Origin: an uncultured Chloroflexota bacterium
Lineage (GTDB): Bacteria; Chloroflexota; Anaerolineae; Aggregatilineales; Phototrophicaceae
DNA length: 42,601 bases
Reading direction: 5' to 3'
Assembly: GCA_937927665.1 (NCBI GenBank)
Contig: CALBRY010000216.1
Coordinates: 1-42,601, forward strand
The notes under the pieces are model-generated. The model saw only the letters and a program-made list of their open reading frames with translations, did not search any database and was not told the origin of the DNA. Below, one piece after another: positions 11,399 through 18,147 of the stretch (its first letter is position 1; every line of letters starts with the position of its first letter). The translations under genes were made by a program, and so were the position numbers.

Positions 11399-11447
11399 TA
11401 GCGCCTTCGGAAGGATAATGGTAAGATGCGTGTGGGATTCTTCACAA
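11399..11447 (+). promoter_or_regulatory. rex promoter with downstream Rex operator
   Basis: TAGCGC-17-TAAGAT with extended TG, followed by GTGTGGG-ATTC-TTCACAA (11430-11447), compared with the Rex consensus TTGTGAA-N4-TTCACAA. Confidence 0.7.
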
Positions 11448-11498: not shown

Positions 11499-12119
11499 AT
11501 GTCGTCTAATGACATCCCCGATATTGTGATAAGCCGTCTTCCGGTCTATCTGCGCGCATTGGAACGGCTGGCGCAAGAGGGTCATGAAGTCACATCTTCA
11601 CATGAACTGGGCAAGCGGCTTGGTATAAGTTCCGCGCAGATTCGCAAAGACCTGTCGCATTTTGGCGGATTCGGCAAGCAGGGTACGGGCTATCGCATCG
11701 CGTTTCTGCGCGAACAGCTCCGTCAGGTGCTGAAGGTCGAACGCGATTGGGAAATCGCGCTGATCGGCGCGGGTGATCTGGGCAGCGCAGTTGCCCGGTA
11801 TCGCGGCTTTGCCGAACGCGGTTTTCATGTCACAAGCGTGTTTGACAGCTCACCGGAAAAGGTCGGGCGGCATATCGGCAGCTTTAAGATTCAAGCTATC
11901 GATGAAGCGCCGCAGATCATCCGCCAGCGCGGGATCAAGATCGCGATGATCGCCGTTCCTGCCGAAAAAGCGCAGGAAGTCGCCGATATGGTCATCGCTG
12001 CCGGGGTCAAGGCAATCTTGAACTACGCGCCGATTAATCTGAATGTGCCGCCGGATGTCCATGTGCAGTACATCGACCCGGTGCTGCATCTTCAGCGGAT
12101 GACGTACTACCTAACCTGA
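11499..12119 (+). CDS. rex: Redox-sensing transcriptional repressor Rex
   Basis: RLPVYLRAL, SAQIRKDLSHFGGFGKQGTGY, GAGDLG NADH loop, ILNYAP. Confidence 0.97.
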   Translation: MSSNDIPDIVISRLPVYLRALERLAQEGHEVTSSHELGKRLGISSAQIRKDLSHFGGFGKQGTGYRIAFLREQLRQVLKVERDWEIALIGAGDLGSAVARYRGFAERGFHVTSVFDSSPEKVGRHIGSFKIQAIDEAPQIIRQRGIKIAMIAVPAEKAQEVADMVIAAGVKAILNYAPINLNVPPDVHVQYIDPVLHLQRMTYYLT

Positions 12120-13123
12120 CCTAATCTAAGCTGCATCAGCATCGACGGATCATTGAGTGCGCGTCCTGCGCCCACTGCCGCCGCGATCATCGCGTTATCA
12201 GCGCGGTATACCGGAACGCCTGTCTCTCGTGTCAGGTATTGGTCAATGCCGCGCAGAAGCGCGCCACCGCCTGTCAACACAATTCCACGATCGATAATGT
12301 CTGATGCGAGTTCCGGCGGCGTATTCGACAACACACGCTTCACCACATCGCTGATTTCGCGCAAAGGTTCTTGAATCGCTTCGACAACTTCGCTGGTGGC
12401 GATTGCGATCGTGCGCGGCATCCCGCTCACGTTATCGCGCCCCTGCACATCCATGCTCGTCTCTTCGACACCGGTCACCGCCGCGCCTACCTGAATCTTG
12501 ACGGATTCGGCGGTTGGCTGACCGATGCTCAGGTTGTACTTGCGCCGCACGTATGCGATCAAGGCGTCATCGATGCGTAACCCGCCGATTCGCCCACTTT
12601 CGGCGCGCACAATCGTATTCATGGTCAAGACCGCCGCTTCGGTGATTCCGCCGCCGATATTGACGATCATATCACCGGCGGGTGTGCCCACCGGCAGCCC
12701 TGCACCGAGCGCCGCCGCCAGCGGTTCAGCGATCAAATACACGCGGCTTGCGCCCGCATCGAGCGCGACTTCGTGGGCGGCTTTACGCTCCACACTGTTT
12801 GCGCCGAACGGAATAGTCATCATCACATGCGGCTTGAAAAAGCGCATGCGCCCGCCTACCTGACCGAAGAAGCGCTCTAACATCACAACCGTTACGTCGT
12901 AGTCGGCGATCACCCCATTTTGAAGCGGACGCACGATTTGAATGTTCTCGTCGTCCACCTTACCAAGCATCTCACGTGCAGGTTGACCGATCTCGACCAC
13001 CTGATCCGGTTCTACTGTGAGCGCTACCAACGACGGTTCACGCAGAACGATCTGTTCATTTTCATAGATCAAGCAGTTGATCGTTCCGAGATCGACGCCG
13101 AATCGTTTCTGGAAAAGTCCCAT
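12107..13123 (-). CDS. mreB: Rod shape-determining actin homolog (MreB/Mbl family)
   Basis: GVDLGT, RPLQNGVIAD, EPLAAALGAGL, TPPELASDIIDRGIVLTGGGALL; start trimmed to ATG 13123. Confidence 0.92.
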   Translation of the reverse strand: MGLFQKRFGVDLGTINCLIYENEQIVLREPSLVALTVEPDQVVEIGQPAREMLGKVDDENIQIVRPLQNGVIADYDVTVVMLERFFGQVGGRMRFFKPHVMMTIPFGANSVERKAAHEVALDAGASRVYLIAEPLAAALGAGLPVGTPAGDMIVNIGGGITEAAVLTMNTIVRAESGRIGGLRIDDALIAYVRRKYNLSIGQPTAESVKIQVGAAVTGVEETSMDVQGRDNVSGMPRTIAIATSEVVEAIQEPLREISDVVKRVLSNTPPELASDIIDRGIVLTGGGALLRGIDQYLTRETGVPVYRADNAMIAAAVGAGRALNDPSMLMQLRLGQVR

Positions 13124-13168
13124 ATTTGCTCTCGAAAGGCAGCGCCTTCTGGCGTATACACGGCGGGG

Positions 13169-13177
13169 ATTATAACA
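13169..13177 (-). promoter_or_regulatory. Extended -10 promoter for mreB
   Basis: TGTTATAAT on the minus strand, 45 nt upstream of the ATG. Confidence 0.55.
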
Positions 13178-13191
13178 CAATCAGCGGGCAC

Positions 13192-13720: not shown

Positions 13721-15178
<1,458 letters not shown>

Positions 15179-15182
<4 letters not shown>

Positions 15183-16468
15183 TGTTCGCGCCCTGCGTTT
15201 AACTGATCTTGATACGCCTTCAACCCATCCCAATCGCCGCGCGCGGCAAATTCTGCTTGCCGTGCCCACGTCGGCAGGCTGGGTGAAAAGTTCATGCCCG
15301 CATTCTGGATTGCCGCCCGCAGTTCGCTTTCGCTGGCAGCAGCGACCTTATCAAAGGTGTCAATTCCGGCAGCTTTTAGCGCCGCTGACATCTTCTTGCC
15401 GATCCCTTCGAGCTTGGTCAGATCGTCGGTTTTTTCTGCGACAGCAATTTGCGCTGCGCCGCCCACCTGCTCCGTTTTGACCGGAGTCGCAGGCTTCACG
15501 CGCGGCTGTTCAGCGATTGCCAAACGATGCGCCTGAAGAATTTGTTCGGCTTCTGCATCAATGCTCGCCTGAAGCGCCTGAGCGCCGCCAACGATATCCA
15601 GAATTTCGTTGGTGATGCCCGCCTGACGCGCTTTGTTGTACACGAGCGTCAAATCTTCGATCAATCCGGCGGCGTTGTCGCTGGCGTTACGCATGGCGAC
15701 CATACGCGCTGAATGTTCACTCGCCTGACTTTCGAGCAGCGCTTGATAAAGCTGAAGCTGCGTAAAACGCGGGACAATTTCATCAAGAATGGCGGCGGGG
15801 TTCGGCTCATACTCGTAATCGCGTCCGCCGGTGCTGACCTGCGGCGCGTTCTTGATGTATTCTGCAGCTACTTGATCGCTCGTTTGATACGGGATCAGCG
15901 GCAGCAAGCGCGACACCACCGGGCGCTGAGTGAGCGTATTGACATAATCGGTATACGCGACAAACACTTCGTCCACGTTCCCCGATAGAAATTCATCCAT
16001 CACGATACGGGCAATCGGCATGATCGTCGCCAGCGTCGGCTCTTGCGAAATATCGCTAAATTCCGCCGCCAATGGCTGACCCGCACGGATGAGCGAATCG
16101 CGTCCTTTGCGACCGACCGCAACCCATTCGACCGGCATTTTTAGCCGTTCAGCAAAACGGCGCGCTACGCGGATGATATTGGTATTAAACGCGCCCGCCA
16201 GACCGCGATCGGATGTCACCAACACGATCTTGATCTTGCGGACTTCGTCACGCGGGGTCAGCAGCGGATGGAGCGCCGCCCCTTGCCCGCCCGCATTCTG
16301 CACATTCAGCAGGATTTCCCACGCTTTTTCAGCAAAAGCGCGGCTGGCAAGCACACGCGCTTGCGCCCGGCGAACTCTGGAAGCGGACGACGCCTCTAGA
16401 GCGCGGGTGATCTGCGCGATGTTCTTGACACTGCGAATGCGCTTGCGAATCTCTCTCGTCGATGCCAT
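15179..16468 (-). CDS. atpG: F1 ATP synthase gamma subunit with C-terminal helix-hairpin-helix domain
   Basis: IRKRIRSVKNIAQIT, SDRGLAGAFN, SEHSARMVAMRNASDNA, RQAGITNEILDIVGG, then 130 extra aa including DDLTKLEGIGKK. Confidence 0.96.
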
Positions 16469-16495: not shown

Positions 16496-18022
16496 TTAGC
16501 CCAGGAAGCTCGTCGTAAAATCCATAATCGCCTGTTTCAGAAGCGCGTCAACATCCGGCTTGATATCGAGATCGGTCGTGATGCGTTCCGCAACTTCAGC
16601 ATACTGGCTGTGATATGCGCGCAGGAATGCCGACTTCCACTCGCTCACACGTTCGACCGGAACATCGTCGATCAAACCGCGTGTGCCTGCATACAGCAGC
16701 GCTACCTGATCCGCCAGCGAGAGCGGTTGATACTGCGGCTGCTTGAGAAGTTCGGTTAGGCGCAGACCACGATTCAACTGACGCTGAGTCGCCTTGTCCA
16801 AACCGCTCGACCCGAACTGCGCGAACGCGGCAAGCGAACGGAACTGCGCGAGGTCAAGGCGAAGACCGCCCGCGACCTTCTTCATCGCTTTGGTTTGTGC
16901 ATCACCACCCACGCGGCTGACGCTGATACCGACGTTCATTGCGGGGCGCTGACCGGCATTGAACAGGTCACTTTCAAGGAAAATCTGACCGTCGGTGATC
17001 GAAATCACGTTCGTGGGGATGTATGCCGACACGTCACCGAGCAAGGTTTCGATGAACGGGAGCGCGGTCAAGCTGCCACCGCCGCGCGCATCGCTCAACT
17101 GAGCGGCACGTTCCAAGAGACGGCTGTGCAGATAGAACACGTCGCCGGGATACGCTTCACGCCCGGGGGGACGGCGGAGGATCAAGGAAACCTGACGATA
17201 TGCCCAAGCATGCTTGCTCAGGTCATCGTACACAACGAGCGCGTCCATCTTGTTTTCCATGAACCACTCGCCGATGGCACAGCCCGAATAGGGCGAGATG
17301 TACTGAAGCGCCGCTGAGTCAGATGCCGACGCCACAACAACCGTCGTGTATTCCATCGCGCCCGCTTCTTCAAGCTGAGCGACCAAACGTGCCACCTCAC
17401 CGCGCCGTTTGCCGATGGCGACATAGATGCAGTAAAGGTTCTTGCCCTTCTGGTTGAGGATCGTATCGATGGCGAGTGCCGTCTTGCCTGTCTGACGGTC
17501 GCCGATGATGAGTTCGCGCTGACCACGCCCGATCGGGGTGTTCGCGTCAATCGTCATGATGCCTGTCTGCACCGGACGGTTGACGTTGCGCCGCGCCATC
17601 ACGCCGGGGGCGATACGCTCAATCGGGTAGTATTCCGGTTGAGAACCTGCTTCAACCGCAATCGGACCCTTGCCGTCAACTGGCTCACCGAGCGCATTCA
17701 CAACACGACCGACCAACCCGATCCCCACCTGCACAGACGCAATACGACCGAGCGGGCGCACTTCGTCGCCCTCGTTGATGCTGTCGTACTCGCCCAGAAT
17801 GATGCACCCAACGTTGTCACTTTCAAGGTTAAACGCCAAGCCAAGCGCGCCATTGGGGAACTTGACAAGGTCGCTGTAACCGATGTTATTCAAGCCGCGC
17901 ACACGGGCGATGCCGTCGCCTACTTCTTCAACAAACCCCACTTCAACCGCTTCAACAGATGGGGTAAACTGCTGAACACGCTGCAAAATTGAGTCAAAAA
18001 ATCCGTTGGTCACTTCCGCCAT
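16496..18022 (-). CDS. atpA: F1 ATP synthase alpha subunit
   Basis: [45 protein letters not shown]. Confidence 0.99.
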
Positions 18023-18073: not shown

Positions 18074-18147
18074 ATTGTAACGGATGCACGTCTGTCTGTC
18101 CACTTTTTCACAATCATGATTGATCTTATTTGTGAAAGCGCTCAACC
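18074..18147 (-). promoter_or_regulatory. atpA promoter with two Rex-like operators
   Basis: TGGACA-17-TACAAT (18102..18074). TTGTGAA-AAAG-TGGACAG (18113..18096) overlaps the -35; GGTTGAG-CGCT-TTCACAA lies at 18147..18130. Confidence 0.62.

Follow-up and report, generated by a model that had tools for sequence, protein, structure and literature searches.

The window (i.e., the whole stretch of 42,601 nucleotides that we analyzed) carries the F1 genes of an ATP synthase as their own operon (atpA-G-D-C), apart from the Fo genes (Table 1). The atpG frame runs on for 130 residues beyond the gamma models, starting at position 15571, and ends in a folded helix-hairpin-helix (HhH) module. PF00231 covered atpG residues 3 to 299, up to its final profile position (303 bits; cutoff, 39.9), and TIGR01146 covered residues 1 to 299 (model positions 1 to 286 of 286; 300 bits; cutoff, 194). 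The initial annotation had placed the end of the gamma core at about residue 299, with 130 amino acids following in frame, and the start of the added domain at 15427. Both placements were confirmed, as the two models stop at residue 299 and D348 begins at 15427. The gene lies between atpA and atpD and is the sole gamma gene in the genome; its product is an F-ATPase gamma subunit. It shares the full core and the operon order with known F-type gammas, including that of Chloroflexus (9itj_G), but differs from them by the 130-residue extension with its folded domain. All 24 of the solved gamma sequences that matched ended their alignment at or before query residue 302.

Table 1. Features of the F1 locus and of the Fo-encoded b subunit (positions are those of the window unless another contig is given)
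Feature	Position	Strand	Remarks
atpA (alpha)	16496..18022	-	N terminus ordinary, no delta piece fused
atpG, gamma-HhH fusion, 429 aa + stop	15179..16468	-	One open frame; junction bridged by contigs from 4 runs
Gamma core (canonical), residues 1-299	15572..16468	-	PF00231 3-299, E 2.8e-90; aligns to C terminus of Chloroflexus gamma 9itj_G
Helical extension, residues 300-320, predicted continuation of gamma C-terminal helix	15509..15571	-	AF2 helix 224-320
Pro/Ala/Lys flexible linker, residues 321-347	15428..15508	-	pLDDT <50 at 321-344; mean pairwise identity 0.18 (22 fused genes)
HhH module, residues 348-429, 82 residues, five helices	15182..15427	-	HHH_5 match; AF2 model pLDDT 92.5
atpD (beta)	13721..15127	-	
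atpC (epsilon), 152 aa	13251..13709	-	Tail also in plain-gamma kin
mreB-family gene directly downstream of atpC, same strand	12107-13180	-	
rex	11499-12119		
Promoter-like conserved element of stand-alone F1 operon, overlapping Rex-like site	18074..18113	-	In fused and plain kin
b fused to delta C-domain, without delta N-domain	L071:775-1704 (G000:C73)		One protein: b 68-197, 27 residues later deltaC 225-288

In the AF2 model, the C-terminal helix of gamma extended to residue 320, residues 321 to 344 were disordered, and the module was folded (pLDDT, ~90). Mean identity among 22 fused genes was 0.75 for the core, 0.41 for the helix, 0.18 for the linker, and 0.59 for the module. HHH_5 (PF14520) matched residues 348 to 385 with 27.7 bits (cutoff, 27), or 30.8 bits when the tail was searched alone. 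The module had been described as HHH_5/DUF4332-like; the first half of this description stands, whereas DUF4332 (PF14229) stayed below its cutoff of 23.2 (18.4 to 20.3 bits). The spacer between the core end and the module measured 27 to 99 residues in 52 fused loci and 28 to 104 residues in 120 proteins, 10 of which carry two module copies on gamma. Three seeming spacers of 2 to 21 residues proved to be envelope artefacts. The aligned linkers showed no obvious conserved motif resembling a cleavage site.

The junction at position 15572 was bridged without any listed indel in contigs from four of four DNA runs, which came from four studies and one of which may be the source sample (X1, 14900-16121; X4, 15490-15860; X5, 15361-16366; X6, 15140-15634). 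RNA runs gave matches on atpG only from related strains or as short pieces. A lost stop codon or an assembly error is ruled out by this bridging together with the fused kin. Nor did the gamma loci read in plain kin contain a separate HhH gene downstream.

We confirmed the fusion as real, conserved, and lineage-wide; the named relatives are records from the Anaerolineae, Aggregatilineales, and Phototrophicaceae. In the genus, 24 of 52 genomes carry it (22 intact genes and 2 that are in frame at the junction but have breaks upstream in the core); the other 28 are plain, and all 28 plain gammas have an extension of 18 to 30 residues. Of 151 genomes of the family, 148 gave a gamma match; 66 of these matches, from 24 of the 41 genera, extend into the module (tallied from the match table, except G008 from its own locus, with five long frames uninspected). 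The order's other families contributed 16 genomes, none of them fused, and 0 of 145 nonfamily rows among the matches listed in a class sample (all but the 20 lowest-scoring rows) extended beyond query residue 341. The best 150 of 1.84 billion representatives included 126 gammas, 5 of them with the module and with cores 60 to 79% identical to the query core, and every one of the 120 best clusters (90% identity) had the module. More generally, 112 of 121 gamma clusters read end no more than 14 residues from the canonical end.

On the gamma-core tree (64 rows; broken genes left out), the fused and plain states require at least five changes, and a single clade of fused gammas was rejected (AU test, P = 0.005; 36 rows). 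The most economical reading is one early gain, with the module then lost several times; several separate gains are a further possibility. In nine fused pairs, dN/dS was 0.03 to 0.28 for the module and 0.01 to 0.17 for the core, and mostly 0.4 to 0.9 for the linker where computable, with synonymous sites close to saturated in some of the pairs. These values indicate purifying selection on the module.

Epsilon has a full C-terminal domain. Its extended tail, pointed out in the initial annotation, is real, but we rejected it as part of a fusion system because plain-gamma kin share it, matching the tail almost to its end (query residues 146 to 151 of 152). Upstream, the conserved element TTGTGAAAAAGTGGACA overlaps the -35 box of atpA. 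This element is Rex-like, with three mismatches to the Rex consensus; the genome holds 273 sites of this kind. Similar Rex-like sites precede rex (window position 11430) and the Fo genes (G000:C73:5694).

No delta gene was found between atpA and proC. The Fo genes on the other contig encode a, c, and b-deltaC, and the sole OSCP match in the genome (profile positions 101 to 171) lies at the end of this b subunit. For the delta N-domain (delta-N), a profile built from 30 phylum loci returned nothing better than an E value of 0.079 in the genome's open reading frames. An OSCP match was present in 38 of 40 relatives. Among 30 loci that we read, 29 have deltaC directly continuing b; the remaining one has a separate delta piece, in a genome also containing a b-sized frame. 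In a phylum sample, 12 of 13 genomes of the same class looked alike (weak matches in frames of 240 to 326 amino acids), and most other classes have a full delta. Apparently, b-deltaC without delta-N occurs across most Anaerolineae (relatives L082-L111), and the enzyme is a candidate natural multi-stalk synthase with a high H+/ATP ratio. The Fo genes lie behind a nuoN-like gene (L081:1060-5624) and away from the F1 genes. Their subunit a, 449 amino acids long, contains a large insertion, and the N terminus of b bears an additional hydrophobic and acidic segment.

The sections available of two papers place the delta N-domain in the central concavity, along the rotor axis, and state that its deletion exposes the concavity and permits up to three stalks (PMC12229609, PMC12002316). 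With no delta-N and with b fused to deltaC, the F1 top is therefore predicted to be open. The gamma tip had been pictured as sitting below where delta binds; this does not hold here, given the missing N-domain and the b-deltaC fusion. We compared gamma ends in the 40 of 56 genomes read. The extension was at most 6 residues in 26 of 26 full-delta genomes, and gamma ended within 11 residues of the canonical end in 5 short-delta genomes. Cap loss is not sufficient for the fusion, because nine b-deltaC genomes outside the order have extensions of only 2 to 8 residues, nor is it clearly necessary, because a yeast gamma-GFP fusion assembles with OSCP present. It looks permissive, and it amounts to one evolutionary event.

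The module has a single intact G-I-G hairpin (residues 355 to 357), a conserved Lys359 after it, and a near-invariant W-x-x-Q-A. The hairpin was kept in 44 of 45 rows and the following Lys in 40 of 45, and W401, Q404, A405, and a terminal G-R were conserved to the same degree as the hairpin. The second HhH position lacks G-h-G, and the module thus differs from (HhH)2 DNA-binding domains, which have both hairpins. The module is slightly acidic (median net charge, -3; range, -8 to +3; n = 120). Fold matches were of the HhH/SAM-like type and modest (best Z, 7.3; rmsd, 2.3; 61 aligned; none at Z of 8 or above). The top ones (Z, 6 to 7.3, short of a decisive level) were POLQ HhH, AF1548, NusA AR, and Rad51-N; proteins that handle nucleic acids and the protein-binding NusA AR/SAM domains scored about equally well. 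Foldseek returned no match to the module at an E value of 0.001 or better, and the ESM Atlas matches were only unnamed HHH_5/DUF4332 clusters. Self-association received a complex prediction score of 0.00, which is evidence for neither outcome.

Regarding other hosts, the best NCBIfam match of the tail was the phasin PhaH (E, 1.9e-9), followed by L21, NuoE, and S2, in agreement with the initial annotation, which had named the latter three. The best matches among solved chains were protein-O and Urf1 of RC-LH1. In close kin, the module ends bL27 and many proteins in which one or two membrane helices are combined with an acidic linker. Among 112 new matches (a sample, with 7,997 candidates scored), a membrane segment was predicted ahead of the module in 89, the module was C-terminal in 105, and tandem copies, up to 16, were present in 49; bL21 and COX1 were among the hosts. 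Most genus genomes have a separate membrane-anchored copy, and no second copy was found in G000, G001, and G002 (atpG's own genome is 86% complete). In a weakly resolved module tree, copies from gamma are interspersed with those from membrane proteins and bL27, the tree being too short for settling origins.

We tentatively favor, at a little less than an even chance, a reading in which F1Fo would serve as the membrane anchor of a freely swivelling nucleic-acid tether formed by the gamma HhH module. The ~21 extra helical residues (~31 Å at 1.5 Å per residue) would carry the chain through the central concavity normally filled by delta-N, and the module would exit at the uncapped F1 top. Single bonds in the linker would absorb rotation; with the linker swivelling, rotation would therefore continue. 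The swivelling has a sound basis: in E. coli F1, a gamma285-alpha280 cross-link is reported to keep 100% activity (PMC3536650, available in part). The module would contact the nucleic-acid backbone whatever the sequence. The precedent is the HhH domain of PhaH; according to the portion of a review at hand, PhaH uses it to bind DNA nonspecifically and spaces PHB granules on the nucleoid (PMC13052382). The target would most likely be the chromosome, held loosely by the membrane-bound enzyme. The module is usually borne by one or two transmembrane helices, and F1Fo would give it a further abundant anchor in the membrane; the gamma copy would therefore be partly redundant, which would explain its repeated loss. 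The two copies on some gammas would suit avidity for a polymer.

Such a tether is suggested by the purifying selection on the module, a spacer never shorter than 27 residues, the open cap, the membrane-anchored module kin, PhaH DNA binding, and the conserved hairpin and Lys. Weighing against it are the acidity of the module, its one G-h-G hairpin, the tied fold matches, and the 28 of 52 genus members without the module. The evidence on PhaH is also second-hand; the related protein-O C-domain is untraced in the RC-LH1 map and its function called obscure (PMC12079452, sections available), and Urf1 of Rhodovulum is described as cut in its Ala/Pro linker (PMC13066640, likewise in part). Finally, the link to cap loss comes from one lineage.

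The main rival reading takes a protein as the ligand. The net acidic charge, the W401, Q404, A405, and terminal G-R positions conserved like the hairpin, the mostly large host assemblies, a NusA profile match at an E value of ~1e-3, and the high place that NusA AR2/AR1 takes in the fold comparison (Z, 6.5; rmsd, 2.7; 65 aligned) would suit a NusA-AR/SAM-type docking domain, linking F1Fo to a partner (RNA polymerase, ribosome, scaffold, or chaperone) shared with the bL21, bL27, NuoE, COX1, and Urf1 copies. We consider docking rather doubtful, although worth keeping in view, given the conserved HhH hairpin and Lys, the DNA binding ascribed to PhaH (the sole relative with a reported activity, in the source as available), and an F1 operon in which no partner gene travels with the fusion. 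That gamma is a mere carrier is unlikely. Here selection on the module would concern a function elsewhere, with production at ATP synthase levels, and the module would be clipped off or left dangling, unconnected with what F1 does or where it sits. This accords with the rejected single clade, the minimum of five changes, the near-neutral linker, the Urf1 cleavage, and the separate membrane-anchored copies in the genus. However, the fusion is in frame across 24 genera with a spacer of always at least 27 residues, the module is doubled in place in 10 of 120 proteins, G000, G001, and G002 yielded no other copy, and the linker shows no apparent conserved cleavage-like motif.

Two further roles concern the enzyme itself; the initial annotation had put forward a brake and RNA autoregulation, besides a sensor. 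As a regulator of the motor, the module would dock on the exposed crown or the deltaC domains instead of delta-N and there either brake hydrolysis or restrict how many peripheral stalks are present. It is predicted to lie where delta-N is missing, and the fusion was seen only in the capless lineage. Nevertheless, a disordered spacer varying from 27 to 104 residues would not carry torque, E. coli F1 is not stopped by a gamma tip fixed to the stator, the module occurs on non-F1 hosts and shows no sign of F1 specialization in the weakly resolved module tree, and epsilon already has its full C-terminal domain. The brake fares poorly on these points, and we regard motor regulation as quite improbable. 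Least probable is autoregulation, in which unassembled gamma would bind its own mRNA via the module and repress the F1 operon. Balancing could be useful with the F1 operon separate from the Fo genes, and the module also occurs on ribosomal proteins. However, neither the leaders (36 from fused and 24 from plain genomes) nor the intergenic spacers (47 fused and 21 plain loci) showed an element confined to the fused group, which is a weak test; the sole shared motif was the promoter/Rex-like site, present in both groups, and the window contained no Rfam family except a tRNA.

The favored tether can be set beside several known systems. In yeast, gamma-GFP (Prescott 2003) likewise shows that a folded domain on the gamma C terminus is tolerated, although direct fusion is described as detrimental (PMC3155378, in the part available). 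That fusion is artificial and coexists with OSCP, whereas the atpG fusion arose naturally, is under selection, and has its domain set off by a helix and a linker. The Caulobacter phasin PhaH (NF045508) has the same arrangement of anchor, linker, and C-terminal HhH, and the tail matches model positions 128 to 228 of 234. Its anchor, however, is a PHB granule-binding part and not gamma, and atpG scores 38 bits against 250 for the full model, over the C-terminal part only. Urf1, protein-O, and protein-3h of RC-LH1, together with NuoE, bL21, bL27, uS2, and COX1, share the C-terminal module, a flexible linker, and membership in large complexes, but these hosts do not rotate; in the available descriptions, the protein-O domain is untraced and that of protein-3h is cleaved off.

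As for the cap, the central concavity is likewise freed or altered in the engineered PS3 deltaC-alpha FoF1, the b-deltaC of N-ATPases, and the two-stalk Chloroflexus FoF1, with no gamma appendage described in the parts of those reports at hand. Here, deltaC is on b of what is apparently the main F-ATPase. The N-ATPases share b-deltaC, but atpG fails their gamma model (TIGR03323; 75.9 versus 282 bits). Absence of the delta N-domain is shared with the multi-stalk PS3 deltaC-alpha type, as read from a genome 86% complete and from 29 of 30 relative loci. The string "Anaeroline" does not occur (0 times) in either of the two main texts that we searched. A 2026 preprint, in its accessible part, reports b-delta fusions and shortened delta in Chloroflexota, and its supplementary figure may include the Phototrophicaceae lineage. 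A paper on cultured Phototrophicus gives AtpG without its length and contains no proteomics. Our literature searches, which covered subscription journals thinly, found no natural gamma-HhH fusion, in line with the initial annotation, which knew of no characterized natural gamma of this kind. Databases already pair the two Pfam families. The components are known, and the gamma-HhH architecture is apparently undescribed in the literature found.

A natural, selected folded domain at the gamma tip would show that the F1 top can be a functional exit port. The fusion also points to an unstudied capless enzyme resembling the engineered low-pmf multi-stalk synthase. Close relatives differ in whether they carry the module, so gamma offers a clean test case for the HhH module of complex I, RC-LH1, ribosomal proteins, and phasins. 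If the tether were true, this would be a natural rotor-to-DNA link and a member of a widespread, unstudied HhH tether family. The fullest version is a speculative one that we think will probably prove wrong in some part: Anaerolineae of the Phototrophicaceae type would have a capless, possibly multi-stalk synthase whose rotor emerges through the F1 top and grips the chromosome via a swivel, as one of many HhH tethers linking respiratory complexes, photosystems, ribosomes, and granules to the nucleoid.

P0199 is a distant gamma, at 43% identity, whose C terminus is prolonged by 83 residues weakly resembling the delta C-domain (OSCP E, 0.0025); it lies on a single short contig and may be an artefact. 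P0152 (a cluster of 4), a gamma-HhH fusion, falls outside the family (94/90) and has a different module subtype, closest to a bL27-borne copy (61%). A second, independent fusion there is possible but not established (AU test, P = 0.24). In P0038, P0182, P0201, P0137, L032, and L054, the module occurs in arrays of 16 to 26 tandem copies, mostly behind an N-terminal hydrophobic segment, or in COX1- and bL27-borne copies.
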